Part shown: positions 3,092 to 61,688 of the stretch, piece after piece
Layout of the letters: the number at the start of each line of letters is the position of its first letter
Numbering within the stretch: position 1 is the first letter of the stretch
DNA from: an uncultured Gammaproteobacteria bacterium
Lineage (GTDB): Bacteria > Patescibacteriota > Patescibacteriia > JAHIZJ01
Assembly (NCBI GenBank): GCA_964594455.1
Contig: CAZQLY010000006.1
Location: forward strand, 8,629-72,628
DNA: 64,000 nt
Direction of reading: 5' to 3'
Made by a program: the position numbers and the translations under genes
Notes under the pieces: generated by a model
Databases searched by the model: none
The model's input: the letters and a program-made list of their open reading frames with translations, nothing else
Told to the model about the DNA's origin: nothing

Positions 3092-3121
3092 GACTAGTTT
3101 TTTATGATTAGTGCTAAATAT

Positions 3122-5501: not shown

Positions 5502-5519
5502 TTAAAAAATACAAAACTT

Positions 5520-6752: not shown

Positions 6753-6756
6753 TTGA

Positions 6757-41777: not shown

Positions 41778-44700
41778 TTATTTCTTACCTTTGGACTCTT
41801 TTTTCTTGGGAGGTTCTTTCTTGGTATCTTTTTTTACTGTCTCGGATTCTTCTTTTGGTTCAGACGTTTCTTTGTCTTTCTCTGTAAATTCAACACCGCT
41901 GCCAATAAGATCCACATCCAAACCCAAGCCCTTGAGTTCACGTACTAAGACATTGAAGGATTCCGGAACGTTTATTTTCTTAATTGATTCACCCTTGATG
42001 ATTGCTTCATAGGCTTTTGATCGGCCAGGCACATCGTCTGATTTGATAGTTAGCATTTCTTGCAAAGTATGAGCTGCGCCATAAGCTTCCAGAGCCCAGA
42101 CTTCCATCTCACCAAAGCGTTGACCACCAAACTGAGCTTTACCGCCCAGAGGCTGTTGGGTGACTAGTGAATATGGTCCGATTGAGCGTTGATGGATTTT
42201 GTCTTCAACCAAGTGATTCAGCTTCATCATGTAGATATATCCTACCGCAACTTTCTGGTCAAAAGGCTCACCAGTTCGACCATCGTAGAGAGATACTTTT
42301 CCGTCTTCAGGTAAACCAGCTCTCTTTAATTCAGCGCTGATTTGAGTATCTTCGATTCCATTTAAAACCGGAGTAGCTACTTTATAACCCAGTTTCTTAG
42401 CAGCAAACCCGATATGAGTTTCCAGTATCTGGCCCAGATTCATACGAGAAACAACACCCAGCGGGTTCAAGATTATGTCTACTGGGGTTCCATCTTCTAA
42501 ATACGGTAAATCTTCGGATGGAACGACTCGAGAGATAACGCCTTTATTGCCGTGGCGACCAGCCAGCTTGTCTCCAACCTGTACTTTTCTCAGCTGGGCA
42601 ACTGAAACCTGGATAGTCTTGATCACACCGGCCGGGAGCTTGTCACCATTCTCTTTGGAGAAGATCTTGATATCAACCACTTTACCGTGCTCACCATGCT
42701 CTAAATAGAGCGAGCTGTCTTTTACGTCTTTAGCTTTTTCACCGAATATGGCGCGGAGTAGTTTTTCTTCAGCAGAAAGTTCAGTTTCACCTTTGGGAGT
42801 TATTTTACCCACCAGAATATCACCTGAGGCTACTTCAGCTCCGATGCGGACAACGCCTTCTTCATCCAAATCTTTAAGCTTTTCCTCACTGACATTGGGT
42901 ATGTCCCTGGTCACAACCTCTGGCCCTAGCTTGGTGTCGCGCACATCAACGGAGTAGTCTTCAATATGAATAGATGATAGTTTGTCGCTCTGGACTAAAC
43001 GTTCAGAAAGCAGGATGGCGTCTTCATAGTTTCCACCTTCCCAAGGAATAAAGGCGACTAAGATGTTTTGACCCAGGGCTAATTCACCATGATCGGTGGA
43101 AGCCCCATCAGCTAAAACATCGCCTTTTTTTACTTTTTGTCCTTTATCGACGAGGGCTCGCTGACTCATACAGGTAGCTGCATTTGATCTTACGAAATTC
43201 CCTAGGGGATAAGTGTGTAATTTATTATCATTATCCATGACCTGAATCTCTGAGGCTTGTACTTTTGTTACTGTTCCATCGGTCTTGGTTAAAATCACGT
43301 GGCCTGAATCTTGAGCAGCTCTGGCTTCAACTCCGGTTCCGACGATAGGAGAGTCTGGTTTAATGCAGGAAACGGCCTGGCGTTGCATGTTTGTACCCAT
43401 CAAGGCGCGAGAAGCATCATCGTGTTCTAAGAACGGGATCAATGAAGTGGCAATACTCACGATCTGTTTTGGTGAAATGGCCATGAAATCAATCTCAGTA
43501 GTGGGGGAGATGGCTGGTTCACCACTGCGTCTTACTTCGGCTCGGTCAAAAGCTAAATAATTCTCGTTATCTAGAGGGGTAGTCGCAGCAGTGGTTACGT
43601 ATTGTTCCTCTTCAAAAGCGTCTAGGTAGATAATCTCATCTGTTACTCGTGGTGCCAACGGAACCATTTCTAAATCAGTTTGGGTCAAATCTTTGGCCTG
43701 TTTTTCTGTTATTACTTCATTCTTTTTAACTATAATATTGCCGTTGGCGTCTTTAATATCTTCTCGACTGCGTAAGCCAACAGCCACTTTGCCATCATTC
43801 TTAACCTCTCGAACTACTTTTCTATAAGGAGTTTCAATAAAGCCAAAGTCATTAACCCGGGCATAGCTGGTCAGATGACCGACTAAACCGATGTTGGGAC
43901 CTTCTGGTGTAGCAATCGGACAAATTCTACCGTAGTGAGTTCGGTGTACGTCGCGAACATCAAACCCAGCTCTTTCGCGAGAAAGACCACCCGGACCCAT
44001 AGCAGAAAGCCTTCTCTTGTGCTCCAGCTCAGCCAACGGATTTGTTTGATCCATGAATTGAGAAAGCTGAGAAGACATAAAGAATTCTTTAACCGCGCCC
44101 ATTACCGGTCGAGCATTGATCAACTGGCTGGGGGTTAGGGTATTTATGTCCATTGTACTCATGCGATCCCGGACAATACGCTCCATGCGAGCTAAACCTA
44201 CTCTGAATTTATTCTGTACCAATTCGCCAATAGCTCGGACACGGCGATTTCCTAAGTGGTCTATATCATCAGCCTCTTTTTGAGACTTATTTAATCGAAT
44301 GATTTCGCTAATTATAGAGATTAGATCTTCACGTCTGAGTACGCGGGTCTCTTTGTTGTTAGGAATATTGAATTCAAAACGCTGATTTAATTTGTATCGG
44401 CCCACGCGACCGAAGTCGTAGCGATCAAATGAGAAAAACATCTTATAAATAAGGTCACGAGCATTGTCGACGGTGGCCAAATCACCTGGGCGGATCCTTT
44501 TGTAAACTTCTTTCAATCCGTCAGCCTCGGAACGGGCAGTATCTTTTGCGATAGTCTGGTCGATGTAGCGCGTATCAGGATCAGTATCAACCTCTTTAAA
44601 CAGGCTTCGGATTTCTTCATCACCGCCGTAGCCAAAAGCTCGCAGCAAGCTAGTGACGGCTACTTTTCTTTTACGATCTATTTTTACAGAAACAACATTG

Positions 44701-45221
44701 TTGTAGTCAGTTTCGAGTTCCAGCCAGGCGCCACGGTTCGGGATTATCTTGGCACCATAGTATTTTTTTCCGCGATAAAATTCTGAAGTGAAAAAAACAC
44801 CAGCCGATCTAATTAGCTGGGACACCACAACACGTTCAATTCCATTAACAATAAATGTTCCGCGGTCAGTCATCAGAGGGAAATCGCCTAAATAAACTTC
44901 TTGCTCTTTAATTTCACCAGTCTTTTTATTCACTAAACGGCAATTTACACGGAGAGCGGCCTCGTAAGTCAAGTTCTTGGCTTTGGCTGTTAACTCATCA
45001 AAACGCGGTTCATCCAAATAGTATTTATCAAAGTATAACTCAAGATTCCGGCCCATATATTCTTGGACCGGCGAGATCTCTTCAAAAAGCTCTTTTAAGC
45101 CTTCACGAAAGAACCAGTCATAGGATTTACGCTGGATTTCGATGAGATTTGATAAAGGGAGGACTTCGCGAAGCGGGTTAAAGAACTTGCGCTCCGCTTT
45201 TAAGGTATTGTTATGAGACAT
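41778..45221 (-). CDS. rpoB: DNA-directed RNA polymerase subunit beta
   Basis: 1147 aa, conserved RpoB regions. Confidence 0.97.
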
Positions 45222-45372: not shown

Positions 45373-45496
45373 GAATGTAGGTGAAAATTGCCATTTATCT
45401 AGTATATTCCCTTAAACTAGCCGTAAAAAGGCATTTATTTGAACCAATGTCTATTTGTTTATACACTTTATTTTTACATCTTATCCACAGTTTATA

Positions 45497-45535
45497 AAAA
45501 AACCAGGTCGTTATTAGGCCTGGTTTTTATATATA
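45497..45535. terminator. Bidirectional hairpin terminator (CCAGG...CCTGG with A7/T5 flanks) downstream of the giant-protein gene
   Basis: Separates giant gene 1 from the rpoB promoter region. Confidence 0.45.
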
Positions 45536-45546
45536 ATCAGCTTTGA

Positions 45547-48500
45547 CTAGAAAGCCGGGGAATCACCTACATAACAGCGGCATTCTTGGCACCAATAGTT
45601 AGTGTTAGAGGTTTGCCAGTATATAGGAGCGCTGGTAACGCGCCACGCGTGGTTACCGGATCCGGATTGACGGCTGACGCAGGTGCCACTATCTTTTTCA
45701 AATCCGAACGCTTCACAAGCATGACGACACTGAATGTGCTGACTTGAATCATCCAGGGCATAGTCATTACCGCCTATATTGAGTGAAATAGCTCGTAGAG
45801 TAACGCTTTTTCTTACGCCGTCATCTCCAACATAACAATTATTTCTGTCCAAAAAGGCATAATTTGACTGTGCGGAGTTGGTATAAACAACAACGCTTTG
45901 AGGTGGACACTGAGCTCCATAATATATATCGCCGTTCCAGGTTATATCTCCAGTAATATTCACCGGCCCATCAAAATAACCAGCCCATTCACCAGTACCG
46001 CCCGTACCGTCAGAACCATAGATAGCAGCACAGTTGCCGCTACTGCAAGTTACACCATTTAGTTCACCATATACAGCGCTGCCTCGGCTAGTGCCAGACT
46101 TGTATCCTGATACGGCATTGTAACGCGCAGAGTCATTTGAGTTATTATAGGACTCAATAGTATTTCCAAGAGAGTAATGCGCTGAATCCAAGCCCACTTC
46201 TAATAATGGTTGATCATTCCAGTTAGAATCTGTTGTCCGAGGAATTCTTACACCACCGTAGCGCAGGATGCCTAGTCTTTCAGAACTGTTTGTTAGCATA
46301 AATATTGGTGCAGTGGAATTGGTGCGGATATATAGGTTACCTGAGCTGTCATAGATTTGATTATCGGAATCGTGTATGTACAGAGTATTTTCTATTTCAA
46401 CATTACCATTGTCATGGACTACTAATTGATCGTTTGCATTATTGGCACCGATCCTAACATCTTTGCTGGCTCCGGCCAGAATGTACAAATCCGAAGACCC
46501 GGAATATATATTAGCTCCGTTACCACCAGTGAACTCTAGCTCATAAGTGCTGTTGGTACCTATTTTTAATGCCACCCCACTTGAAGGCTCATTGATGTGC
46601 AGTTTTGCCGAAGGATCAGTTGTGTCTAAACCGATGTCGCCGGTACCTTCTTCTATATACATAATAGTGCTAGCCGCTTCGGAATAAATCTTGAAGTCCC
46701 GACTAGCCGTATATAAGTTGTTTATAGCACCCCAAGCACCCAAGGACAGCATGGAAGTTGGAGTGCCAGCAGAACCAAAGTTTATCTGAGGTCCCGATCC
46801 CTGACCACCTTGAGCAAGCTGTACCCCATAAGAACCGTTCTCAGATCTGATATATCCCTCGGCGTGTAGTTTTACTACTGGACTTGATTCACCAACACCA
46901 AGATCTCCCATAACAATAACATCATTATCTGCGTTAGACACATCTCCCAACCAAATACTATCTGCCCATCCATTACCAGCAACATCAATATGAGCGCGGC
47001 TGTCAGTATCGCTGATGCCCAGCTTTAATTCATGCCCATTATTAACCAGCCTAATTTGCCCCCCTACAAAATGAAAGTCTGTTTGAGGATTATTTGTTCC
47101 AAAGCCCATCTGGGTGCCGTTATCAAATATCCTAGAATTGCCAATTGTATCGGAGTCAATAAATTTTGATATATAATTGGCTGTTCCGCTACCGTCTATT
47201 CCGGTACTACCGCCGCCTCTATCTTCAGCACAGATTAGGTAACCATTAGCGTCTGCGTCTACTGTATAATCACCGGTACAACTACTGCCGGCCAAGCTGG
47301 CAATACGAACGTTGCCAGAGTTATTTATCCTGACGGCCTCAGTGTTTCCGCTGCCCATATATAAATTTCCTAATTCATAATTCCAGAGGTAAGCTTGGTT
47401 TGAATGATATGATACTTCCAAACCATCAGCCGAACCGCTTCCTGAACCGCTGTTTTGGATCAGTATAATTGAGGGATCAGTATTTCCATAAACAGCCAGC
47501 TTGGCTTGGGGAGACGGGGTGCCGATGCCCACCTTGCCGTCATTGGTAATTCTCAAACGCTCAGCTAAATGAGGGTTTGTATCGCCACCAAAGTTTCCTT
47601 CGCCAGTCAAAAAGGTGATTACGCTGGTCATGCCTATGCGTGTACCCCTGGAAGGATTACCTCCACCACCATTATAAGCACCACTTGGATTAACGAATAC
47701 ATATTCACTGCCGTTGTATTTTATGTTTCCACCGATATAAGTGTTCCCGCCACTATCTGTACCAAGCTGCTGATAGGTTCTAATTCCAACTAATCCAGAA
47801 AAATAAGCCGCATATCCATTCCAGTTACTCTGTTCACCGTAGATAGCTGAATTGATAGAGTTGTTCTTCACAGCTAGCTGGGTGTTGTCTCCTGCGCCGG
47901 ACCAGCCGATCCTGACTTTGGTGGTGTTGGGGGTTTTGGGATTGATGTTGTCACCTTGAGTGCCTTCCCAGAGACCAAAACCAGTACCATTTATCCTTAA
48001 ATTAACCGCTTGATTAGTGCCTGCACCACCCAGTTGTTCGACTAGAATACTGGCATCACTTGATGTAAGCTTACTTAGTAGAAAATTGTCAGCACTGTCA
48101 GTGCCGGAAACTTTTACTGTTTTTGTATCTACACCGCCGCCACCACCGTCATCAGGTTCGCAGGTAACATCCGTTACTATACCGCCGTTAACGGTTATAG
48201 TACTTACCACGTTATCGTTACCGCTACAATACGGAGAGGCAGAAGCTCCAGCTACACCGTTGTGTCGGTAGACAAAGCCGGTTTGGACGTTAACATCACC
48301 GTTGACATCAAGTTTATAAGAAGGAGAACCATCATTGATACCAACATCTCCGGTAGCATCTTCAATAGCGAAAACATTGGTACTGGCATCATTGAGAATG
48401 TTAAAGTCGCCCGAGGTGTCTATATCGATATCAAAATATTCACCACCCGAGGTTTCTTCCAGCCTTAAGTTTTTGTTACCAGAACCAACTATGGCAAATT

Positions 48501-49956
48501 TACCCGAAAAGTACCCAGAATAACCTGTTCCTGATTGTTGGCCGTAAATAGCTGAGTTGTCAGAGGTATTGATTACTGACAACTGGGTAGCATCGCCTGC
48601 TCCAGACCAACCGATTCTAACCTTGGTAGCGGCCGGAGTGACTGGGTTGATATTGTTTCCAGCCGTTCCTTCCCATAAGCCTGAACCTCCAGTAGATGAA
48701 ATTTGAACTCCATAGTAACCCGCTCCTTGGTCTACTTCGGTTAACGTAACGTTAGCACCGGCAACGAGCTTGTTATTGCCAATATCAAGAGGGTCATAGA
48801 GATAACCAGCATTAGAATCGCCAGCCTTAGTTTTTACCAGTACATCTGTGCCGCCGCCAGCGTCGTTTACCAGAACAACGTTGCCATTTGCATCTACCGA
48901 CAAGACCGTGCCTGAGCCAACACCGCCAGGTGAGGCGCTGGTCAGATTAGTGAACCTCACGCCGCTGGCATTAGCTACTCCGCTGTCAATTTCCAAGGCT
49001 TCATTGGGAGCATCAGTTCCTATTCCCACCTTATTATCATCAATTACTAATGTTTCAGTAGCACCATCACTGATAATCTTTACTCCATTGCCGCCGCCAG
49101 CATTGATCTGAAACCAGCCGTTTTCATTAGTGAGATAGGTTAGCTTTGAATTAGTAGTGTCTTCAAGTAAAATCCCTTGACCCACCTCCCCAGCAATATG
49201 TAGTTTCATTTGAGCCAGTTGTGTGCCAACGCCGACGTTTCTTTGAGTAGCAGTTTCATCTAGATAAACCACATCCGGATCAGGTGCGGCGTTAAGAATC
49301 CACAGACCCCCACCGGTAGCCCAAGAGGCAATGCAGGTAGAGTCATCTCCTGGATCGTTTAAACATAACCTAGTTGGGGTAGCCACGTTACCAAAGTATA
49401 CGTTTTCAGCTTGCCCGCCAGCACCGTCATCGTAGTTGATATAGAGAGGGGCTCCGGTCGATTTGATATCAGATCCCGCATCAGCAGTATTAGATTTCAT
49501 GATTAATATCTTTCCACCTGAATTATCAATAGTTATTTCCCCTGGATTGAGCCCAGCGTTAGTGACAACAACGCCGCTCTGCAAGGTTATCTTGCTGCCA
49601 GCGTTTTCGCCAGGGGACACATACAATACATCAGTGGCATGCTCAATATGTGGATTGGCAGTGCTATCGTCTAGGTCAGACCAGAACAAGCCTTTATCGC
49701 TTTGGCTGAAAAAAAGATTGCCTGTATTAACATATAGGTATTCGCCCCCGACCGTTAAACTGCCCTGCTTAGTTTGAGCAGAACCTGATACATTAATTGG
49801 TGCGGCTACATTACCGCCCGGTGGGGGGGAAACCGGTGAACTCCACTCGGCTTGGGCTATTTTTGCCCCGACTAGACCGAGTATACAAAATAAGGCCACT
49901 ACTAGCATTATTTTTAATGGCAGAATGGCCCGATCAGAGTGTTTAATTGTTTTCAT
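45547..49956 (-). CDS. Giant secreted surface protein (about 1470 aa) with tail-fibre-like Gly/Ser/Thr/Asn-rich repeats and a Cys-rich C-terminal domain
   Basis: Signal peptide MKTIKHS...GAKIAQA/EW. Repeated [D/N]VGIGTxxPxxKL[H/D]V-type motifs. Internal duplication. Start set at the internal Met before the signal peptide. Confidence 0.85.
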   Translation of the reverse strand: MKTIKHSDRAILPLKIMLVVALFCILGLVGAKIAQAEWSSPVSPPPGGNVAAPINVSGSAQTKQGSLTVGGEYLYVNTGNLFFSQSDKGLFWSDLDDSTANPHIEHATDVLYVSPGENAGSKITLQSGVVVTNAGLNPGEITIDNSGGKILIMKSNTADAGSDIKSTGAPLYINYDDGAGGQAENVYFGNVATPTRLCLNDPGDDSTCIASWATGGGLWILNAAPDPDVVYLDETATQRNVGVGTQLAQMKLHIAGEVGQGILLEDTTNSKLTYLTNENGWFQINAGGGNGVKIISDGATETLVIDDNKVGIGTDAPNEALEIDSGVANASGVRFTNLTSASPGGVGSGTVLSVDANGNVVLVNDAGGGTDVLVKTKAGDSNAGYLYDPLDIGNNKLVAGANVTLTEVDQGAGYYGVQISSTGGSGLWEGTAGNNINPVTPAATKVRIGWSGAGDATQLSVINTSDNSAIYGQQSGTGYSGYFSGKFAIVGSGNKNLRLEETSGGEYFDIDIDTSGDFNILNDASTNVFAIEDATGDVGINDGSPSYKLDVNGDVNVQTGFVYRHNGVAGASASPYCSGNDNVVSTITVNGGIVTDVTCEPDDGGGGGVDTKTVKVSGTDSADNFLLSKLTSSDASILVEQLGGAGTNQAVNLRINGTGFGLWEGTQGDNINPKTPNTTKVRIGWSGAGDNTQLAVKNNSINSAIYGEQSNWNGYAAYFSGLVGIRTYQQLGTDSGGNTYIGGNIKYNGSEYVFVNPSGAYNGGGGNPSRGTRIGMTSVITFLTGEGNFGGDTNPHLAERLRITNDGKVGIGTPSPQAKLAVYGNTDPSIILIQNSGSGSGSADGLEVSYHSNQAYLWNYELGNLYMGSGNTEAVRINNSGNVRIASLAGSSCTGDYTVDADANGYLICAEDRGGGSTGIDGSGTANYISKFIDSDTIGNSRIFDNGTQMGFGTNNPQTDFHFVGGQIRLVNNGHELKLGISDTDSRAHIDVAGNGWADSIWLGDVSNADNDVIVMGDLGVGESSPVVKLHAEGYIRSENGSYGVQLAQGGQGSGPQINFGSAGTPTSMLSLGAWGAINNLYTASRDFKIYSEAASTIMYIEEGTGDIGLDTTDPSAKLHINEPSSGVALKIGTNSTYELEFTGGNGANIYSGSSDLYILAGASKDVRIGANNANDQLVVHDNGNVEIENTLYIHDSDNQIYDSSGNLYIRTNSTAPIFMLTNSSERLGILRYGGVRIPRTTDSNWNDQPLLEVGLDSAHYSLGNTIESYNNSNDSARYNAVSGYKSGTSRGSAVYGELNGVTCSSGNCAAIYGSDGTGGTGEWAGYFDGPVNITGDITWNGDIYYGAQCPPQSVVVYTNSAQSNYAFLDRNNCYVGDDGVRKSVTLRAISLNIGGNDYALDDSSQHIQCRHACEAFGFEKDSGTCVSRQSGSGNHAWRVTSAPIYWQTSNTNYWCQECRCYVGDSPAF

Positions 49957-50035
49957 TGTATTGGTGATAAAAGTTAAAAGATGGTAACTAAAAATCACCC
50001 TTTATTATACTAAAAACTGTCTGTTAATACAAAAC

Positions 50036-50066
50036 AGACCCGATACCGGGCCTGTTTAATATGTGT
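50036..50066 (-). terminator. Hairpin terminator between the two giant genes (10-bp stem including one G-U pair on the minus-strand RNA)
   Basis: AAACAGGCCCGG-UAU-CGGGUCUGUUUU on the minus strand. Confidence 0.4.
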
Positions 50067-50076
50067 TTGATTGTTT

Positions 50077-53000
50077 CTATAATTCGCAGCAAATGATATC
50101 GGTCAATCTATCGCGCTCTTCGTTTCCTGCACTGTCCCAGAATTTAACACCGCAGACATAATCGCCCTCACCACACATAACAGTGCTACCATCAGGTTGG
50201 TTAGGCATGCCGAATTCTTGAGCAGTACCATGATAGTTATTTGGTGCTCCGAAGTCCCCGTTTGAAAATACGGCATAGTTTTTATAATCTCCAAGAGCGC
50301 TCGGGTTATAGCCATAGACTCCATAAGCATATCCATCGTCCTCGCCAGTAACTTGGCCCCAAACCCCGGCCTTAGTGCCAGAGGAAGAAACCGTAGCATT
50401 GGAGTATCCAAACACACCTGCTGAACGGCCAGTACTACCGGTAGCGTTGCGTCCAAATCCAACTAAACCATAACTACCTCGGTTAGTAGTGCCAGTAGTG
50501 CCTCCAACGCCAATAATCCCGATACCAGTACTCGAGCTGGCAGTGTTGATTGCCCTGATAACACTATAGTCATCCCAAGCTGGATCTGCGTGTGCTTCTG
50601 TAACTGTGGCCTCAAAAAGCCCAGCATAGTCTCCATCGGCCTGACTTACGTATAAAGATGGATCAGATGTGCTGGTGTAAATAGCTAAGCCGGTTCCTGA
50701 TAAGCCGTTGCCGCTAGTTCCATTATTGATAACTAACTTAGCGGCCGGAGCGCCGTTGGAAATGCCAACATTTACTCTTTCATCAAATTTGACTATTGTA
50801 TTCATGATTGAAAACTGAGGATCATCCCAAGAAATAGTGTTACCTGTGGTTGTAGAGCCACTCTTTTCGTAAAAATGTATACCTTGTCCCGGAGCGTCTG
50901 GAGTTGAGCCACCGTACTGAAAGGCGATCATTCTGGTTCCGAATGAAGCGTGAGTATTGGTATAGACATAGTTTGAACCATTCCAGGCGCAATTATGACA
51001 GAGAGTTTCATGAGCATGAGCCGATACACCCGCTTGCCAGTTGGCTCCATAGCTAGACATGAATATTCGATTGCCTTGACTGTAGATTGGGCCGTTGACG
51101 TGAAGTTTAACTGTTGGATTAGTTTGTCCAATACCCACCTCTGAACCATCATCCGTTATTTGAGAGTCACTTAAGGTGGTGGCAGCGGTAAACTTAGCTA
51201 CCCGATTTGCAGTACCAGATCCACCGAGACCCGATGGCCAGCTACCGCGGCAGTCGCCGCTGATACAAAGCTGAGTAGCGTTAGCATTGCCGCTGACATC
51301 CAACTGGTATGAAGGACTACTGTCATTTATTCCTACAAAGCCAGGATCGCCGGCCGCATTGCCTAATATTGTAATTCTGGTTGTCTCGCCAGTCTGTAAA
51401 ACTAGATTATCACTGCCATAGCTTGAGAACCCACCATTGGAAATTATTTTTTTATTGAAGTAAAATTTGGCTCGATCAGTGTAAAGATGAGCATAACTGG
51501 CATTGTCAGACCCAATATCCAAATAGCCACTAGTTGTAGATACTCTAACCATACCACCACTACCGCCGTGATTGATGTTACCTCTCAAAGCTCCATCGTT
51601 GAAAATATTTAACACTGTAGTACTGTCACGAATGAAATCTACCGTACCATTACCAGCACCGTCGCCCCATTTAAAGTTTGGATTATCGCCGGCCACTATA
51701 TCCATATCCCCGCCGATAACTTCACCGATATACATATCTGTTCCGCCGACATAGAGCAAATCACCAACACCATCAAGCCGCATATCACCGACTACATGTA
51801 ATTTGTGGGCAGGGTTATTTGTACCAACGCCAACATCCCAGCCCGTGTTGTTGGGATAAAGATCAGTACCGTTCAGCGTCCAGTAACTGCTGCCACCAGC
51901 TGCTGCCCAGGACAAGGTACCGCTGCCATTATTTGTTAGTACGGTACTAGCGCCTCCTTGGGCGGCCGGCCAGTCATAGACCACGTTTTTTATTCTTTGA
52001 ATATCACCGTCTGAGGCTACTTGGAATTTGTCACCTGATCCTACAGTTAATAATGCGGCTGGACTGGTGTCGCCGATGCCAATATTACCACTGCCTGTGA
52101 TAGTCATTCTATAATTATCATTGGTTCCAAATTGGATACTGCCGTTTTCATAATTCCAAACGTAGGTGGATACGCCGTCTTGAGATATTTCAAAACCATC
52201 ACCCACACCTGTCCCACTCAAAGCATCTTGTAGCAAAATAACACTAGCATCATCATCATAGAGATTTAATTTTCCTTTTGGATCAGATGTGCCAATACCA
52301 ACATCACCGCCTGACTCTATCACCATACGTTCTTGAGTTGTGCTGCCGTCGGGACTAGTGTAGAACATCAGTTTGGTAGGGTAGTCGTTGGGACTCCAAT
52401 CAGCCGTGGCTCGGCCCTTTATTTGAGCACCGATCGAACCATCGCCACCATCATCTCCAGAGAAATATAAGGCTCCTAGATCCTCGCCATCTACAATTAC
52501 TGAATCATTACGTCTCAGTGCTTGATAGCCGCCACCGGTTTCTCCAACGTCCAGCTTATTTTGAGGATCGGGTATTCCGATACCGACATTGCCACCTGAA
52601 CCAATCATCATTCTTTGTTGGACGGTGCTGCCATCGGGTGCTGTCCAAAAAGTAAGTTGAGTTGGACTATCATTCAGACTCCAATCAGCTGTTGAGATAG
52701 CTTTGATTTCAGCGCCGATAGCGTTAGTTGATCCATCATCGCCGTTAAAGTAAATTGCACCCAAATCCTCACCAGTGGTGATAAAATTATCATTTCTTCT
52801 CAGAGCCATATATCCACCAATGCTTTCTCCAACCTCAAAACGGTGAGTCATGTCCGTGACACCGACACCGACCTTAAAATTATCGTTATAGATGTTTGAA
52901 TTGCCGATCTCGTAAGCTCCATTTGTGAATCTTGTCACATAAGCAGTAGTACCAGTACTAACTATGCCACCGCCAGAGCCGCCGTCATCAGATTCACAAG

Positions 53001-54849
53001 ATACATTGGTTACAATACCACCGTTGACTGTAAGATTACTGACAACTATATCATCTCCATTACAAAAGGGTGAGCCAGAAGTGCCCGCGGATCCAGCATG
53101 ACTATAGACAAAACCGGTTTGAACATTTATATCTCCATTGACGTCAAGCTTGTAGGAAGGGGAACTGTCATTGATACCGACATCACCAGTTGAATCCTCG
53201 ATGGCTAAAGTATTGGTACCGGCATCATTAAGAATGTTAAGATCTCCCGAGGTATCTATATTGATATCAAAATATTCTCCGCCTGAGGTTTCTTCCAGCC
53301 TGAGGTTATTGTTTCCAGATCCCACAATGGAGAATTTACCGGAGAAGTATCCAGAATAGCCGGCGCCTGCTTGTTCAGCATAGATGGCCTTATCAGTAGC
53401 CACGGTACCGGTATTCTTGACTGACAACTGAGTATTGTCTCCGATGTCGTTGCGGCCAATCGCTACTTTGTCCGTCGCTTCGTTGACGGGGTTAATGGTA
53501 TTGGCCGTGACGCCCATTTCCCAGAGTCCTGAGCCACCAGAAGTTGTTAAATCCAGGGTTTGGTTTTCACCAATGCCACCGACTAAAGCGATATTTACAC
53601 TTGAATCACTGGAGGTTAATTGGTTCATCAAGTAATCGGCTGACAATTCGCCTGCAGTTACTTTGACGTATTCATCAGTGCCGCCGCCACCTCCATCATC
53701 TGTACCGCAAACTATGTTTCCGTTAGCGTCGGTATCCAAGGTATTAGCACCGGTACAACCTGCAAGCTGAGTAAACCTTAAGCCGCTTGTATTATTCACG
53801 CCACTGTCGATTTCTAATTTTACGTTTGGCGTATCGGTCCCTATTCCAACCTTGTCGTCATTGACTATTAAAGTTTTAGTTGCGCCATCACTTATTATTT
53901 TTATACCGTTGCCGCCGCCAGCGTTTATTTGAAACCAACCATTCTCATTTGTGAGATAGGTGGGTTTTGTGTTAGTCAAATCTTCTAGGAGAATGCCCTG
54001 ACCAACTTGCGCAGCAATATGTAATTTCATCTGGGCTAGCTGTGTGCCAATTCCGACATTTCTTGTTGAAGTTGTTTCATCCAGATAAACGACATCCGGA
54101 TCTGGTGTGGCGTCGAGAGTCCATAGGCCACCACTGCCTCCAGTTTGGTCCCAACCGGTAATACATTCCGCACCAGTGCCATCATCATTGAAACAGACCC
54201 TGACAACGTGGGTATCCGATCCGATTATGAGATCTTGCCCACCCGGATTGGAATCAAGGGTCTTATCGGCTGCTAAATAAATGTCTTCACCAGCGCCACT
54301 GAAATAATTTACGAACAAAGGTGAACCAGTTGATTTAACATCTCCCCCAGCAGCGCCGTCTTCCAGGGCTAGGGTTAAGGTTCGTCCTTCAACCGAGTTT
54401 ATTATCTCCAGACTGCCCTGATTAGCATCGGCCCTGGTAATTGTTACATCGCCTTGGTTCTCAATAGCTGTACCAGCATCACCAGCCGATATATATACTG
54501 TTCCTAAGGAATAATTAATATGAGGATTGGAAGGACTATTATCTTCGTTGGCCCAGAAAACACCAGCATTGTCAGCCACAAAAAAAGCGTCTCCAGTAGT
54601 GAGCACTAAATATGCCCCATCGGCTTTTAGATATTCTCCGGCAACAGTTAAGCTTCCTTGTTTGGTCTGAGCTGACCCGGATACGTTGATTGGAGCGGAT
54701 GTGTTGCCACCGGGCGGGGGAGCTACTGGAGAGCTCCATTCAGCTTGAGCAATTTTTACTCCAACCAGTCCCAAAATACTAAAAAACGCCACTAGTAAAG
54801 CTAAGCGCGAAACGCGAGTGGCGTGTTTAAATTGACTTTTCATAGTCAT
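50077..54849 (-). CDS. Giant secreted surface protein (about 1590 aa), paralog of the 45547-49956 product
   Basis: Same signal peptide and post-cleavage motif (KIAQAEWSSPVxPPPGGN..APINVSGSAQTKQGSLTV). Long collinear blocks nearly identical to giant 1. Divergent Cys-containing C-terminus. Confidence 0.85.
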   Translation of the reverse strand: MTMKSQFKHATRVSRLALLVAFFSILGLVGVKIAQAEWSSPVAPPPGGNTSAPINVSGSAQTKQGSLTVAGEYLKADGAYLVLTTGDAFFVADNAGVFWANEDNSPSNPHINYSLGTVYISAGDAGTAIENQGDVTITRADANQGSLEIINSVEGRTLTLALEDGAAGGDVKSTGSPLFVNYFSGAGEDIYLAADKTLDSNPGGQDLIIGSDTHVVRVCFNDDGTGAECITGWDQTGGSGGLWTLDATPDPDVVYLDETTSTRNVGIGTQLAQMKLHIAAQVGQGILLEDLTNTKPTYLTNENGWFQINAGGGNGIKIISDGATKTLIVNDDKVGIGTDTPNVKLEIDSGVNNTSGLRFTQLAGCTGANTLDTDANGNIVCGTDDGGGGGTDEYVKVTAGELSADYLMNQLTSSDSSVNIALVGGIGENQTLDLTTSGGSGLWEMGVTANTINPVNEATDKVAIGRNDIGDNTQLSVKNTGTVATDKAIYAEQAGAGYSGYFSGKFSIVGSGNNNLRLEETSGGEYFDINIDTSGDLNILNDAGTNTLAIEDSTGDVGINDSSPSYKLDVNGDINVQTGFVYSHAGSAGTSGSPFCNGDDIVVSNLTVNGGIVTNVSCESDDGGSGGGIVSTGTTAYVTRFTNGAYEIGNSNIYNDNFKVGVGVTDMTHRFEVGESIGGYMALRRNDNFITTGEDLGAIYFNGDDGSTNAIGAEIKAISTADWSLNDSPTQLTFWTAPDGSTVQQRMMIGSGGNVGIGIPDPQNKLDVGETGGGYQALRRNDSVIVDGEDLGALYFSGDDGGDGSIGAQIKGRATADWSPNDYPTKLMFYTSPDGSTTQERMVIESGGDVGIGTSDPKGKLNLYDDDASVILLQDALSGTGVGDGFEISQDGVSTYVWNYENGSIQFGTNDNYRMTITGSGNIGIGDTSPAALLTVGSGDKFQVASDGDIQRIKNVVYDWPAAQGGASTVLTNNGSGTLSWAAAGGSSYWTLNGTDLYPNNTGWDVGVGTNNPAHKLHVVGDMRLDGVGDLLYVGGTDMYIGEVIGGDMDIVAGDNPNFKWGDGAGNGTVDFIRDSTTVLNIFNDGALRGNINHGGSGGMVRVSTTSGYLDIGSDNASYAHLYTDRAKFYFNKKIISNGGFSSYGSDNLVLQTGETTRITILGNAAGDPGFVGINDSSPSYQLDVSGNANATQLCISGDCRGSWPSGLGGSGTANRVAKFTAATTLSDSQITDDGSEVGIGQTNPTVKLHVNGPIYSQGNRIFMSSYGANWQAGVSAHAHETLCHNCAWNGSNYVYTNTHASFGTRMIAFQYGGSTPDAPGQGIHFYEKSGSTTTGNTISWDDPQFSIMNTIVKFDERVNVGISNGAPAAKLVINNGTSGNGLSGTGLAIYTSTSDPSLYVSQADGDYAGLFEATVTEAHADPAWDDYSVIRAINTASSSTGIGIIGVGGTTGTTNRGSYGLVGFGRNATGSTGRSAGVFGYSNATVSSSGTKAGVWGQVTGEDDGYAYGVYGYNPSALGDYKNYAVFSNGDFGAPNNYHGTAQEFGMPNQPDGSTVMCGEGDYVCGVKFWDSAGNEERDRLTDIICCEL

Positions 54850-54910
54850 ATTATCCTTATTATTGATAGCTATTTTATATTTATTTAAGAAATATACTAT
54901 TATTATAGCA

Positions 54911-54943
54911 AAAAACAGGGCAAAAAGCAAGCCCTATTTTTTT
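54911..54943. terminator. Hairpin (AACAGGGC...GCCCTATT) with flanking A-run and T-run between the Mur-ligase gene and giant gene 2
   Basis: Sequence inspection only. Confidence 0.35.
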
Positions 54944-54946
54944 CTT

Positions 54947-56257
54947 TTACGAATTACCTCTAAGTATCTTTTTGACTGTTTTTTCGTCACTCCAAGGAAT
55001 CTTTTTGCCATTGCTGATTACCATATTTTGCTCGGAGCCCTTGCCGGTTATTATCACTATGTCATCCGGCCCGGCTAGACGGAGAGCCTTTCTAATGGAT
55101 TCCTCACGATCCAGGATTTTGAAATAATGCTGGCTTTCAATTTTCCCTGGATGTTTCTTTATCCCAGCTACAACATCGCCAATTATTTCCATCGGGTCAT
55201 CATCGTAAGGATCTTCGTTAGTAACGATAATGTAATCCGTGTATCTAGCAGCCAGCTCTCCCAGAAGAGGACGTTTTCTTTTGTCGCGTCCGCCGCCTTG
55301 AGAACCCAAGACGCTTATTATCTTTCTTGGCTGGTAAGACTTGAGCGCGACATAAACCTGTTCTAGGCCAGCCGGCTCGTGAGCATAATCAACTATAACT
55401 TTGAATGGTTGCCCTTCATTGATTGATTGCATGCGGCCGGGTACTTTAGGAATGCTTTCCAGCGATTTGATAATTTTATCAAGGGAAATTTCTTGAGACA
55501 ATCCTACGCAAATCGCGGCCAGAGCGTTGGCAGCATTGAATCGCCCCAATAGTTTAAGCTGCGCTGACTTGTTTTCGACTGTAAAGGATACACCCGAAGC
55601 ATTGTCATTAATATTACTTCCCTGAATAATACGCAAGCCCTCTTTAGCCAAAGATTTTTTTTGTAGAGAGTAGCCATAATAGATTTCAGCTGGAAACGAC
55701 AAAAAGTATTCAGCTGCCGGATCATCTAGGTTTACGATCGAAACTTTTTTTATCTCAGGCTTTTTATTGTGACTCAAGGAGGCAAACAACTTACCTTTGG
55801 CTTGCTTATATTTTTCAAACGAGCCGTGGGATTCTATGTGCTCTGGAGTTAGGTTTGTAAAAACTGCAACATCGTAATAAATACCCCAATGGCGGAATTG
55901 CTTGATACCCTCAGAGGTTGTCTCGACGATAGCGTAATCACATTTCTCTCGTACCATTCGTCGCAAGAAAGATTGGAGGCTGAGGCGGCCACGCATGGTC
56001 ATCTTGGTATCGTTGAGCCATTCTTGATCACCAATTTTGAAATTAACAGTTGAGGTATGACCTACCTTAAATCCCGCACCTTCTAATGTTCTGGCAACCA
56101 TGTTTACAACCGTTGATTTTCCATTTGTACCAGTGACACCAACCACTTTGATATCTTTGGAAGGAAAATGGTAAATCAAGGTTGCTAGCACAGCTAAGCC
56201 TAAATGATAGTGGGACAGTAAAGATTTGGGTAGAAGTTTTTTTATTAATCTTTTCAT
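54947..56257 (-). CDS. Mur ligase family protein lacking the N-terminal UDP-binding domain (MurE/MurF-like central and C-terminal domains)
   Basis: P-loop VVGVTGTNGKST at about residue 40. ETTSEGI, FTNLTPEHIESHGSFEKY and DYAHEP motifs. C-terminal GKGSEQNMVISNGKKIPWSDEKTV. Confidence 0.7.
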   Translation of the reverse strand: MKRLIKKLLPKSLLSHYHLGLAVLATLIYHFPSKDIKVVGVTGTNGKSTVVNMVARTLEGAGFKVGHTSTVNFKIGDQEWLNDTKMTMRGRLSLQSFLRRMVREKCDYAIVETTSEGIKQFRHWGIYYDVAVFTNLTPEHIESHGSFEKYKQAKGKLFASLSHNKKPEIKKVSIVNLDDPAAEYFLSFPAEIYYGYSLQKKSLAKEGLRIIQGSNINDNASGVSFTVENKSAQLKLLGRFNAANALAAICVGLSQEISLDKIIKSLESIPKVPGRMQSINEGQPFKVIVDYAHEPAGLEQVYVALKSYQPRKIISVLGSQGGGRDKRKRPLLGELAARYTDYIIVTNEDPYDDDPMEIIGDVVAGIKKHPGKIESQHYFKILDREESIRKALRLAGPDDIVIITGKGSEQNMVISNGKKIPWSDEKTVKKILRGNS

Positions 56258-56260
56258 GTG

Positions 56261-58747
56261 TTAATTAGCTGCTAGGTTGACGCCTGATTTAAATGATTCA
56301 GCGTAAACCAGGTATTCTTCGTAAAGATTGGTTCCCTCGCGGTTAAAGTAACGAACCAAAGGACTGCCACTGCTTCTGACTGATACAACTATTTCCTTTT
56401 TGCCGTTATATTGCAAGTCTGAAGTGGCCAGGTTGATTCCTCCACGGAAATCTGGCGCGAAAGCCATGAAGCCCACATGTTCCAGAATAACTGTTTGATC
56501 TGATTTCCGGCCAAATATTCTGATTTGAGGCCCGCCCGCGCTAGCTATACCTGTGATTATCTCATCTTTTCCGTCACCGTCAACATCTCCGCCAGCCAAC
56601 GTCATACCGCCCATGAAATCTTCATCGTAAGCCATCAAGCCCAGAATGACCGGCACAAAGACCCTGTTGCGAAAACCGAATATTCTGATATGCGGGCCGC
56701 CGTTACTAAGCGGTGCGGTAATTATTTCTCCCATGCCATTACCCTCCAGATCAGCTACGGCAACAGAAACCCCGCCACGGAAATTTTCATCATAAGCCAT
56801 GAAATTTTCAGTAGTAGGTTCAAAGCTTCCTGAGCGGTAACCAAATATTCTGATATTGGGGCCGCCATTGCTCATGGGTGCGGTAACAATTTCCGCTTTA
56901 CCACCGTCCACATCACCAACCGCTATATTTACTCCACCCCGGAAGCCGGTATCGTAGGCAAAAAAGTCTTTTTCAAAATCCCCGGACAGAGAAAAAACTC
57001 TGATCTGTGGACCGCCGCCTGGCCCGGGCGCGGTGACGACTTCGTCCTCTCCATCACCATCGACATCGCCAATAGCTACATTGACACCACCGCGGAATGT
57101 CTCAGCGTAGACAAAGAAACTAGCTATTTCAATTCCTCGGGTGGAGAAAACTCTAACGTGAGGTCCGCCTCCAGCATTGGCTCCAACCACAAAGCGTCTG
57201 GTATCAACTGTATATTCAGCCGTATTAATATCTTCAGGATTACCGGCCACGTCAATTGCGTAATAAGTAAGAGTGTTGGTTCCTTCGGGTGCGGTTAATG
57301 GTTCGGTATATTCGGCATATTCATCATCGCCCCAACGATAATAAATAGCATAAACATCAGACATGGCGTCGCTAGCCGAAAGGGTTATCGTGGGGGATTC
57401 AAGGTAATAATTATCCGAATCATCCGGTTCTGGGTCATGAGCAAGTGTTGTCGTGGGAGAGGCGACATCACCAATTACTAATTCAAAGGCGGCTTCTAGA
57501 TCAATCAAGCCGTAACCATAGGTCGTGTCATATCCGGACTTACCCAAATCCTTGGCGGTTGTTTCCAGAACAGATTGGATGTTATCAGAGGGAACCCCAG
57601 CTGCTAACAATAATGCAGCAGCACCGGAAACATGAGCTGTTGCCGAAGAGGTGCCTTGAGCCCAAATATCGTTAAACACCGAATAGTCCATTTCTCCGCC
57701 AGCCATGCCGTTATAAGTCTGCTGGACAATACCATCAATAATTTCATCATTGTTTTGATCAACATTAATATTTCCACCTGGTGCGACAACGCTTAAACCC
57801 TCGCCGTAATTAGAGTATGAGGGTTTGGTTTCATCGTACTGAGTGGCTCCAACACCTATGACAGCATCATAACTGGCTGGGGCTTGGAGCTTACTAGCGC
57901 TGGAATTACCGGCCGCGGCCACCAGAACAATGCCGTTGTCACTGGCTTCGTCCAGAGCCTCGCTATAGGCCTCATCAGCCGCATCAGTTGATCCAAAGCT
58001 CATATTAATTACATCAACGCCGTTCTCTATGGCGAATTCAATACCCTCGATTATAGCATCGGTGGTTCCAACTCCATTAGCGCCCAAGACCTTGATCGGC
58101 ATTATTGAGCTATTAAAAGCCATGCCAGCCATGGCTACACCATTATTAGTGGATTGGGCAATAGTGCCGGTCATATGCGTACCATGACCGTTATCATCGT
58201 TAGGGTGAGAGTCATTATTAACAAAATCATATCCGGAAACAAAATTGGTGCTGGCTAAATCTGGGGCTTGATTAAAATCTTTGTAATCTTCATACGCCAC
58301 CCCGGTGTCCATAACCGCTACCACAATGCTGTCGTCACCACCATACTTTGGTGTATCGGTGTCTTGATCCCAGGCTGATTCGACATTTATTTGATCAAAG
58401 TTCCACTGGTAAGAGTAAAGCGGGTCGTCTGGTGTGAAGCTGGATATTTTGTAGAGATAGTTTGGTTGAATAGACTCTACCAGTAAATTGTTTTTTAATC
58501 TGGTTAAGGCTGTAATAACTGATTCGTCTTGCAAGGACACTTTTACCAGGGTGTCAGATTGAGTAGTTAGGTATTTGATGCCACTGACTCCAAGTTGGTC
58601 TTCTAATTCATTACTAGCCTGAAAAGCCACCGAGGGATTTAGCTTGATGAGAACCTCATCAGCTGCATAGTTGGGCTCAATTGCCGAGGCTTTGGACGCC
58701 AGCATGAGGAACAGAAATAGGCTGAAAATTAGTGATGTTTTTTTCAT
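56261..58747 (-). CDS. Secreted S8 subtilisin-like serine peptidase with a C-terminal array of FG-GAP-like repeats
   Basis: Signal peptide. Catalytic triad contexts VAVMDTGV (Asp), HGTHMTGTIA (His), GTSSATAHVSGAAALL (Ser). At least eight repeats of the type RGGVN.A.GDVDGDG.DE.VT.P..GGGP.IR.F. Confidence 0.85.
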   Translation of the reverse strand: MKKTSLIFSLFLFLMLASKASAIEPNYAADEVLIKLNPSVAFQASNELEDQLGVSGIKYLTTQSDTLVKVSLQDESVITALTRLKNNLLVESIQPNYLYKISSFTPDDPLYSYQWNFDQINVESAWDQDTDTPKYGGDDSIVVAVMDTGVAYEDYKDFNQAPDLASTNFVSGYDFVNNDSHPNDDNGHGTHMTGTIAQSTNNGVAMAGMAFNSSIMPIKVLGANGVGTTDAIIEGIEFAIENGVDVINMSFGSTDAADEAYSEALDEASDNGIVLVAAAGNSSASKLQAPASYDAVIGVGATQYDETKPSYSNYGEGLSVVAPGGNINVDQNNDEIIDGIVQQTYNGMAGGEMDYSVFNDIWAQGTSSATAHVSGAAALLLAAGVPSDNIQSVLETTAKDLGKSGYDTTYGYGLIDLEAAFELVIGDVASPTTTLAHDPEPDDSDNYYLESPTITLSASDAMSDVYAIYYRWGDDEYAEYTEPLTAPEGTNTLTYYAIDVAGNPEDINTAEYTVDTRRFVVGANAGGGPHVRVFSTRGIEIASFFVYAETFRGGVNVAIGDVDGDGEDEVVTAPGPGGGPQIRVFSLSGDFEKDFFAYDTGFRGGVNIAVGDVDGGKAEIVTAPMSNGGPNIRIFGYRSGSFEPTTENFMAYDENFRGGVSVAVADLEGNGMGEIITAPLSNGGPHIRIFGFRNRVFVPVILGLMAYDEDFMGGMTLAGGDVDGDGKDEIITGIASAGGPQIRIFGRKSDQTVILEHVGFMAFAPDFRGGINLATSDLQYNGKKEIVVSVRSSGSPLVRYFNREGTNLYEEYLVYAESFKSGVNLAAN

Positions 58748-61011: not shown

Positions 61012-61027
61012 GGACCGTGGAGTATTG

Positions 61028-61543
61028 CTAGCAGCGCATGACGGTCCGGAGTACCCGGGTGACCTCGGCGACATCGTTGGCCGTCCTCGCGCTCGACTGG
61101 GCCGCATTGTTGACCGTGCAGCAATCGCGCGCATTCACCTGGATCCTTCCCGAGTTGTTGGCGACATCGTAGTTCTTGGCGATGAGGGCCGCGCTATTGA
61201 CCGCGTCGTCGATGTAGCAGCCGGAGCGCGCGTTCGCCTCGATCTTGACTTGGTGAACCGCGCACATGGTCTCGTGGGCGCAGGTCCGTCCGCTGATTTC
61301 TTCGTAATTGAGATTCTCGATCCTCGTCTGGGCCGCGTCGAAACGGAAATCGGCCGCCATGATCGGGCTGGCCTTGTTGGCGATCGCCTCGACGTTGCTG
61401 TTCTCCACGACTTGCTCGTTCAGCATCGCGATCTGCGGGGTCGTGGCGAGCTCCGCCTTCTCGACCGCCATCGCGCTTCCGGAAATGAACAGGATCGCCA
61501 GAACGGCGATCAGTGGAACAAGGGGCCAGAGTCTTCTCATCAT
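61028..61543 (-). CDS. Hypothetical secreted Cys-containing protein (171 aa) in a very GC-rich island
   Basis: GC about 62-65 %. Perfect SD AAGGAGG 4-7 nt before ATGATG. Signal peptide MMRRLWPLVPLIAVLAILFISGSAMA/VEK. Six Cys. Own terminator. The two plus-strand ORFs and one minus-strand ORF overlapping this island are taken as shadows. Confidence 0.6.
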   Translation of the reverse strand: MMRRLWPLVPLIAVLAILFISGSAMAVEKAELATTPQIAMLNEQVVENSNVEAIANKASPIMAADFRFDAAQTRIENLNYEEISGRTCAHETMCAVHQVKIEANARSGCYIDDAVNSAALIAKNYDVANNSGRIQVNARDCCTVNNAAQSSARTANDVAEVTRVLRTVMRC

Positions 61544-61608
61544 CGTTCCTCCTTGAGTTGGAGAGACAACCAGCGCATGTGTCTACCACCGTTGTACCAC
61601 GAAAGCAT

Positions 61609-61635
61609 AAAAAAACAGCCTTCGAAATTAGGCTA
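61609..61635 (-). terminator. Hairpin plus T7 terminator downstream of xseB
   Basis: AGCCT...AGGCT stem. The minus strand reads ...AGGCTGTTTTTTT. Confidence 0.4.
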
Positions 61636-61688
61636 ACATAAAAACATAAACATAAATTAGGCAAGTCCTAAACTTTTTTATGAGTATT

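Follow-up and report, generated by a model that had tools for sequence, protein, structure and literature searches.

Two giant secreted proteins encoded in a Mur ligase–rpoB island of a patescibacterial genome: candidate trimeric surface fibres with exchangeable tips

Between a Mur ligase gene and rpoB, the 64-kb stretch of contig CAZQLY010000006.1 analysed here (the window) carries two giant genes, termed A and B, which lie head to tail on the minus strand and code for secreted proteins of 1469 and 1588 amino acids. The two proteins are probably trimeric β-helical surface fibres of the MAT/tail-fibre kind, encoded in a recombining island in which tips are swapped, and their likely role is attachment to a host cell or a surface glycan. 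An earlier note, made from the sequence of this stretch, had described tandem giant secreted proteins of about 1470 and 1590 residues with tail-fibre-like repeats; the gene models confirm the former, and comparisons with phage and MAT fibres, set out below, the latter.

Shaft repeats, N-terminal module and tips

Whole-protein searches with A and B retrieved no family from Pfam or NCBIfam, and a whole-protein search of PDB sequences gave a single weak match, to 8OJN, the tip of Bdellovibrio Bd3182. This match led to a repeat-profile search of PDB, in which a profile of 42 columns, built solely on the 12 most clear-cut repeat units in A and B, was compared with all PDB sequences. The significant matches were confined to Bdellovibrio MAT fibres (8OND, Bd2133, E = 1.1e-18; 8OML, Bd1334, E = 1.3e-12; 8OJN, Bd3182, E = 5.5e-10; 8OL4, Bd2439, E = 9.7e-6; 8ON4, Bd1334, E = 1.8e-4), followed weakly by the MyRF structures 7DC3 and 5YHU at E = 0.07–0.36, below significance. 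Two PHROG tail-fibre families (9942 and 18345) are matched by B with E-values of 3e-24 and 2e-15, at residues 548–979 and 809–977, and by A with 1e-13; tail fibres of cyanophages and pelagiphages match at 27–36% identity in tblastn searches. The repeat pattern proposed earlier, [DN]VGIGTxxPxxKLxV, occurs in neither protein in its exact form. The observation of many tail-fibre-like repeats nevertheless stands under the relaxed capping-loop pattern [VIL]G[IVLF][GNSD]xxx[PA]xxx[LFVI], of which A contains 6 copies and B 10, as against 0.1 in shuffled sequences. The shaft modules of B recur in the homologues P0003–P0008 in different orders.

Members of the MAT family, as defined by Caulton et al. 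2024 (PMC10769870), have a signal peptide, an N-domain that is conserved and homologous across the family, a β-helix intertwined as a trimer along the whole fibre, and a tip of either the S74 or a non-S74 type. The capping loops of these fibres read V-G-G/N-π-x-x-P-x-x-x-L and are found outside the family only in MyRF, and the β-rich N-domain of ~130 residues directly follows the signal peptide (PMC10769870). A and B have an apparent N-terminal signal peptide, a shaft whose capping-loop profile matches MAT fibres at 1e-18 to 1e-5, and variable tips that are unrelated to each other and of the non-S74 type. The S74/endosialidase chaperone, a domain raised in the earlier note, is absent from both proteins, with no Pfam match even at E ≤ 1 and no SDxxxK near either C-terminus; it is present in the homologues P0003 (39% identical to A over 500 residues) and P0004, which share the N-terminus of A and B and end in a PF13884 S74 domain with SDxxxK. 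Being devoid of S74, A and B correspond to the "NS74" class of MAT fibres.

As read from the sequence, both leaders consist of a basic n-region, a hydrophobic core of 16–17 residues and the putative cleavage site AQA↓EW. A type IV pilin-like or lipoprotein leader was considered and ruled out on the same reading, as neither a G↓F(T/S)L(I/L)E motif nor a lipobox is present. The two signal peptides, once thought near-identical, are so in the hydrophobic and cleavage regions only, identity over the first 50 residues being ~68%. Cleavage would expose a motif common to both proteins, AEWSSPV[SA]PPPGGN[VT][AS]APINVSGSAQTKQGSLTV. This motif had been taken to be unique to the pair; its sharing by A and B is real, its uniqueness is not, as it heads many Patescibacteria proteins of 90–2500 residues.

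The motif opens an N-terminal module (N-module) of the same architecture in A and B. In B, it comprises W..P..PPGGN..APIN.S..QTK.GSLT, GxFW...PH...Y.S.G, and a Cys loop C.NDxxxxxxCI..W; in close relatives, the three elements, spread over ~200 residues after the signal peptide, read W..P...PPGGNV.AP[IL]N.S...QTK.G.LT, G.FW....D...PH.......Y.SPG, and C.ND......CI..W. In a scan of 185,579 species genomes with a trimmed alignment (A3), confirmed copies of the module came almost exclusively from metagenome-assembled genomes (MAGs) labelled Patescibacteria, namely Taylor-, Kaiser-, Nealson-, Nomura- and Yonathbacteria, Paceibacterota and some bins labelled Saccharibacteria. The exceptions were four loci from MAGs labelled "bacterium" or "uncultured bacterium" and one bin labelled Gammaproteobacteria, whose RpoB is 84% identical to that of the window. 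No match was found in the 2.9 million viral contigs of IMG/VR. In distant matches that look Bacteroidota-like by their N-termini, the shaft repeat is the same but the N-terminal module in front of it is another one, and the N-module of A and B is therefore regarded as lineage-specific. To judge from its position and its likeness to the MAT arrangement, this module presumably anchors the fibre at the cell-proximal end.

The first ~35 residues of the module, (A)W..P...PPGGNV.AP[IL]N.S...Q.K.G, also head many small (90–770 residues) secreted Paceibacteria proteins (L007–L027; P0081–P0113); Cys-rich C-termini or a YCD.NG.NC loop are frequent among them, and tandem pairs occur in places (L008, L017, L021). 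Neither a family of Pfam or NCBIfam nor a paper in the literature searched covers the PPGGN motif; the segment may be a device for display or anchoring at the surface that is specific to the phylum.

At the other end, the C-termini differ completely, as had been proposed: the last 148 residues of A and the last 231 residues of B have no significant mutual similarity. The tip of A, a domain of ~125 residues, has eight Cys that are invariant in four sequences (C-x23-C-x35-CxxxC-x11-C-x29-CxxCxC). Its relatives were located by tblastn in the loci of related genomes and by one metagenome scan; in all searches combined, it was seen in four genomes only, always on the rpoB-adjacent gene, and it has no relative in Pfam or PDB. 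Its CxxxC...GxC...CxC pattern resembles that of CS-α/β (defensin-like) peptides. A CS-α/β domain is retained as an unproven lead only: the Cys pattern fits, and the profile comparisons gave no support, with Pfam Defensin-like at E = 0.038, below the cutoff, and hhalign against an approximate plectasin sequence at a probability of 2%. The tip of B consists of a G.YG-rich region and a C-terminal module of ~45 residues, C.EG.YVCG.K.WD....R....CC[ED]L-COOH. An exhaustive HMMER search of 1.84 billion representative proteins returned only 10 relatives, several of which share just the terminal module; Pfam gave no match and a PDB profile search chance-level matches only. By analogy with known fibre tips, both domains may bind ligands.

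In the mechanism proposed here, both proteins would be exported by the Sec pathway and cleaved at AQA↓EW, the features of a Sec leader being present in each. The lineage-specific N-module, with its PPGGN motif, β-rich insert and Cys loop, would hold the fibre on the envelope of the producer, as suggested by its position, its conservation and the MAT analogy. The mosaic shaft, whose VG[IV][GN]xxxPxxxL repeats are visibly homologous to those of known fibres, would form an intertwined trimer of the type expected for its S74-bearing homologues, and a trimeric β-helix is thus predicted for A and B. Finally, the two unrelated, rare, Cys-containing non-S74 tips, which are seen to be exchangeable, would offer different ligand-binding surfaces, and the tip repertoire would set the specificity of attachment. 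The most likely role is host attachment, by analogy with Bdellovibrio MAT fibres and with the epibiotic lifestyle of cultivated Patescibacteria. The published Bd3182 fibre comprises ~780 residues in a model of ~550 Å (PMC10769870), and rough scaling from it suggests fibres of ~100 nm.

Several points weigh against this interpretation. The β-helix, the trimer and the tip folds are predicted from sequence homology alone. AlphaFold2 monomer models were unusable, with predicted local distance difference test scores (pLDDT) of 41 for the N-module (alignment of 11 sequences) and 32 for the tip of A (two sequences), and searches of Pfam, NCBIfam and PDB gave no match for either tip. Fibres devoid of S74 would need another route to trimerisation. 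Moreover, the repeat is combined with other N-modules in other lineages.

The island and the exchange of tips

The genes next to A and B belong to the housekeeping chromosome. Downstream lie rpoB and rpoC, and upstream the genes for the Mur ligase, a secreted FG-GAP-repeat S8 subtilase, an LCP protein and XseA; FtsK, RecA, EF-P, SUF, SHMT and glycogen genes are encoded further out in the window. The RpoB of the window is 81–86% identical to RpoB of MAGs labelled "Patescibacteria group bacterium", and all full-length homologues of A and B with a source name are labelled Patescibacteria. From the flanks, the RpoB likeness and the homologue labels, A and B are judged to be chromosomal genes of a bacterium of the candidate phyla radiation (CPR).

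Six other assemblies, seven with the window, share the order (XseA-XseB-)LCP-S8-Mur ligase-[island]-rpoB-rpoC(-FtsK). This order persists (window 35615–63198; L005, L029, L030, L031) even where the Mur ligase is only 43–44% identical, the island being the sole variable segment. Islands contain one to five fibre genes with at least nine different C-termini, among which S74 is the only known domain. B and then A make up the island of the window; JAUYLJ01 (L005) has one fibre gene with an A-type tip, and JAQTMH01 (L006) at least two, a fibre with a B-type tip (P0115) and an S74 fibre (P0003). Five fibre genes occur in CAYJKP01 (L003/L004), the rpoB-proximal one with an A-type tip, and at least three in the WC497 MAG (JBAZLK01 contig L002 together with L028, Ga0265297_10000925), the last of them again with an A-type tip. 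Ga0172379 holds a short fibre of 362 residues, a 1311-residue Beta_helix/He_PIG protein, P0004 (an S74 fibre) and P0007 (with a Cys-containing tip). The SRR26421930 island has a fibre of 1148 residues, P0005 and a protein of 202 residues. The tip of A is seen again in three other genomes, each time on the rpoB-proximal gene, and that of B in one other. The suggestion of swapped tips made in the earlier note is supported by these islands, in which the same N-terminus is joined to at least nine different C-termini.

Further observations concern the relatives' islands. The 1311-residue protein (Ga0172379_10000306; L029 5931–9866) has a different leader and neither the PPGGN module nor VGIGT repeats, which indicates that the hotspot also accepts other surface proteins. 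A stretch of N breaks up one of the five CAYJKP01 fibre genes. The contig CAYJKP010000003.1 (L003/L004) is titled "uncultured Gammaproteobacteria bacterium"; its RpoB and RpoC are 84% and 78% identical to those of the window and also resemble those of Patescibacteria-labelled MAGs, and the label of this bin is probably wrong. The 828-residue S8 subtilase with FG-GAP repeats (56261–58747, minus strand) accompanies the island in every assembly that extends far enough, and could process or mature the fibres.

Sequence comparison points to the way in which tips are exchanged. Four of the CAYJKP01 paralogues share 78–92% identity over 380–620 nt at their 5′ ends, and other similar blocks lie at shifted positions. 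In two genomes with ~91% identical flanks, the rpoB-proximal tip and rpoB-rpoC are collinear at 90.5% identity, and the shaft is a patchwork of segments that are most similar to different paralogues in the array. Among positional orthologues of A, the N-module and the tip are better conserved than the shaft. The paralogous blocks, the patchwork shaft and the conserved ends show shuffling of modules by recombination among tandem paralogues, and exchange of tips at a conserved pre-tip junction (...AIYG...GEWAGYFDG). Diversification by a diversity-generating retroelement had been doubted earlier, and rightly so: a blastn comparison of the 9.4-kb region with the window yielded only two A–B paralogous blocks and nothing like a template or variable repeat or a silent cassette, and there is no reverse transcriptase among the annotated open reading frames (ORFs) of the window, not every ORF having been scanned.

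The tail-fibre likeness raises the question whether A and B belong to a virion instead, as prophage tail fibres or as receptor-binding proteins of a tailocin-like particle. The PHROG and phage tblastn matches would fit such a view, as does the name "tail fiber domain-containing protein" given to homologues by NCBI. Both proteins, however, bear Sec-type signal peptides, and their genes are flanked by housekeeping genes in a locus that is syntenic from Mur ligase to rpoB in seven assemblies. No capsid, tail, terminase or integrase gene is found among the annotated ORFs of the window, and neither the N-module nor the A tip occurs in IMG/VR. Prophage origin was ruled out on the basis of the housekeeping context and the absence from IMG/VR, and a virion or tailocin function as a whole is very improbable.

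A structural role in the cell coat has also been considered, namely that A and B are surface-layer (S-layer) or other coat proteins whose paralogues represent antigenic or phase variants. By composition, the mature proteins are large, acidic and rich in Gly, Ser, Thr and Asn (A ~149 kDa with an isoelectric point of 4.35, B ~161 kDa with one of 4.2). Each gene has its own promoter box and a strong terminator, and the Mur ligase, LCP protein and secreted S8 subtilase are envelope-gene neighbours. CPR cells have been reported to bear S-layers. While all this would suit a coat protein, the repeat is specifically that of trimeric MAT/tail-fibre β-helices, the S74 chaperone, a domain known from no proteins other than trimeric fibres and spikes, is present in close homologues, and neither an SLH nor any other S-layer domain is detected in A or B with Pfam and NCBIfam. 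A copy number of one to five combined with widely varying tips is, furthermore, the behaviour of receptor-binding proteins and not of a lattice subunit, which makes a coat function rather unlikely.

Fibres of this architecture might, on the other hand, be used for something else: capture or degradation of polysaccharides in the manner of tailspikes, cell–cell aggregation, or action as phage decoys or shields. Tips that match no Pfam or PDB fold leave room for such uses, the Beta_helix/He_PIG protein in the Ga0172379 island is of a kind found in polysaccharide lyases or binders, and the window encodes glycogen/starch and sugar-uptake genes. Yet Pfam and NCBIfam reveal no enzyme domain in A or B, the closest characterised relatives are adhesins of a bacterial predator, and the high turnover of tips fits recognition of variable cell surfaces, with which glycans in general remain compatible. 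A use other than host attachment seems unlikely.

With attachment fibres as the preferred interpretation, a broader and distinctly more tentative proposal can be made. Possibly, though on balance doubtfully, the Mur ligase–rpoB island is the host-range locus of this lineage, in which tips are swapped by recombination between paralogues to track host surfaces, and the PPGGN module is an undescribed phylum-specific display or anchor device. If true, the island would play in a cell the part that receptor-binding-protein cassettes play in phages; the PPGGN module heads hundreds of otherwise unrelated secreted Paceibacteria proteins of 90–2500 residues.

Gene models, paralogue likeness and other genes of the window

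The coordinates of the features are collected in the table. Internal ATG codons are the likely starts of both genes, because the extended ORFs begin at GTG or TTG codons that overlap or adjoin the upstream terminator and −10 box. In both genes, a TATAAT box lies ~50–60 nt upstream of the start; that of B is directly downstream of the terminator hairpin of the Mur ligase gene (54910–54935, fold z −3.7). As each gene possesses its own TATAAT box and its own GC-rich hairpin/T-run terminator, A and B appear to be separate transcription units, and the private terminators described in the earlier note are indeed present (z-scores relate the folding energy to that of shuffled sequence). The database proteins P0001 and P0002 both stem from one NCBI contig of 96 kb; gene A is additionally present on the Logan contig SRR7048224_318466.

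Table. Features of the island and its borders in the window (positions of the whole stretch; ↓, putative cleavage site)
Feature	Position	Strand	Basis or remark
rpoB, conserved downstream border of island	41778–45221	-	ORF list, synteny
Gene A intrinsic terminator, hairpin AAAAACCAGG...CCUGGUUUUUUU	45494–45528	-	-12.9 kcal/mol, z -4.5
ORF A, extended	45547–49998	-	ORF list
Gene A, 1469-residue candidate secreted fibre protein (MKTIKH... start)	45547–49956	-	100% identical to database protein P0001
A tip, residues 1322–1469	45550–45993	-	alignments A4/A5
A mosaic shaft, residues 601–1321, including conserved pre-tip module ...AIYGSDGTGGTGEWAGYFDG	45994–48156	-	motif count, PDB profile matches
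Paralogous block in A, residues 1–600	48157–49956	-	BLASTP, nucleotide comparison
A N-terminal module, residues 37–240	49237–49848	-	alignments A1–A3
A PPGGN segment (first ~35 post-signal residues)	49740–49848		
A putative signal peptide, residues 1–36, ...ILGLVGAKIAQA↓EW	49849–49956	-	sequence reading; no lipobox
Gene A -10 box TATAAT, TTGTAT 17 nt upstream	50004–50009	-	read from sequence
Gene B intrinsic terminator, hairpin ACAGGCCCG-GUAU-CGGGUCUGU + U-run	50029–50055	-	-17.1 kcal/mol, z -5.6
ORF B, extended	50077–54930	-	ORF list; head-to-tail with ORF A
Gene B, 1588-residue candidate secreted fibre protein (MKSQFKH... start)	50077–54843	-	identical to database protein P0002
B tip, residues 1358–1588	50080–50772	-	alignment A6
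B mosaic shaft, residues 618–1357, 6 further capping-loop repeats	50773–52992	-	motif count, PHROG, PDB profile matches
Paralogous block in B, residues 1–617	52993–54843	-	57% amino acid identity to A residues 1–600
B N-terminal module, residues 35–262	54058–54741	-	alignments A1–A3
B PPGGN segment (first ~35 post-signal residues)	54637–54741		
B putative signal peptide, residues 1–34, MKSQFKHATRVSRLALLVAFFSILGLVGVKIAQA↓EW	54742–54843	-	sequence reading: basic n-region, hydrophobic core, AxA
Gene B -10 box TATAAT (TGcTATAAT, extended -10)	54902–54907	-	read from sequence
Mur ligase gene, conserved upstream border of island	54947–56257	-	Pfam, synteny

According to BLASTP, A and B are 57% identical in amino acid sequence across their first ~600–617 residues; beyond that point, similarity is patchy at ~25–30% identity. 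Long blocks of above 80% nucleotide identity, as claimed in the earlier note, do not exist: the best two blocks reach 75.8% over 417 nt and 75.6% over 365 nt, and identity above 80% is confined to stretches of about 150–190 nt, which include antisense shadow ORFs. These shadow ORFs (48335–48523 and 53171–53359), said to be near-identical, are 82% identical.

Elsewhere, the window contains no tRNA, tmRNA, rRNA or Rfam family at gathering threshold. On the minus strand, two GT5 glycogen/starch-synthase paralogues (1610–3091, 6757–8235) and two GH57 paralogues (4071–5501, 5520–6752) form one cluster (1610–8235), apparently a case of storage-glucan genes duplicated in tandem within a small genome. 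A protein of 229 residues (34914–35603, minus strand) shows an unusual pairing of an N-terminal HTH_25 with a C-terminal Glucodextran_B-like domain; the same Glucodextran_B domain is found in S8 subtilases of related loci. Two plus-strand ORFs of 527 residues (11541–13124) and 203 residues (61025–61636) match no Pfam family at the thresholds used.

Significance and comparison with known fibres

Studies of host attachment by ultra-small Patescibacteria have so far dealt mostly with type IV pili and a few Saccharibacteria adhesins. Against this background, the island offers concrete, sequence-defined candidates for the way in which Patescibacteria recognise and hold their hosts. At the fixed, readily located site between the Mur ligase gene and rpoB, the tip type could be read from metagenomes and compared with the co-occurring hosts. 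The architecture as such is already known from MAT fibres and phage tail fibres, and NCBI labels some homologues accordingly; in the literature searched, no paper links MAT fibres or the PPGGN motif to Patescibacteria. Relative to that literature, the presence of the family in Patescibacteria, the lineage-specific N-module, the fixed island with one to five genes and at least nine tip types, and both tips of the window have not been described. A MAT/tail-fibre architecture known from predators such as Bdellovibrio would thereby be extended to CPR bacteria, and several tip modules as well as the N-module are new to Pfam, NCBIfam and PDB.

Four known systems lend themselves to comparison. In the ICA/S74 region of MyRF, the capping-loop repeat matches weakly (E 0.07–0.36), but MyRF is a eukaryotic transcription factor and the match, a single loop, stays below significance. 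Trimeric autotransporter adhesins of the YadA type are likewise long, modular, adhesive trimeric fibres, as A and B are predicted to be; the homologue P0008 carries YadA head repeats, and one database names a distant homologue "trimeric autotransporter adhesin". In contrast to these adhesins, A and B have no YadA anchor or β-barrel translocator detectable with Pfam or NCBIfam, and their polarity is reversed, the conserved and presumably cell-proximal end being N-terminal.

Phage tail fibres and tailspikes with S74 (PF13884), exemplified by T5 pb1 and the K1F endosialidase (cited in PMC10769870), have homologous shaft modules, and the relatives P0003 and P0004 end in S74 as these do. A and B themselves differ from them in the absence of S74, in their Sec signal peptides and cellular N-module, and in the housekeeping genes that flank them.

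The closest counterparts are the MAT fibres of Bdellovibrio. Both systems combine a signal peptide and a conserved N-terminal domain with a very long shaft bearing the capping-loop repeat VGxG/NxxxPxxxL and with exchangeable tips, S74 or unrelated non-S74, some of them with disulfides. The phylum of A and B is missing from Supplementary Table S3 of the study that defined the family (PMC10769870). The N-module of A and B has a Patescibacteria-specific sequence with the PPGGN motif and the Cys loop, the two proteins are ~1.5 times longer, and their tips match none of the solved MAT tips. Whereas the MAT genes of Bdellovibrio are dispersed, those of the A/B type are clustered in one fixed island adjoining rpoB. 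In both cases, many paralogues occur per genome, and the producer lives on other bacteria, a lifestyle that for the A/B organism is suggested by analogy with its cultivated relatives.

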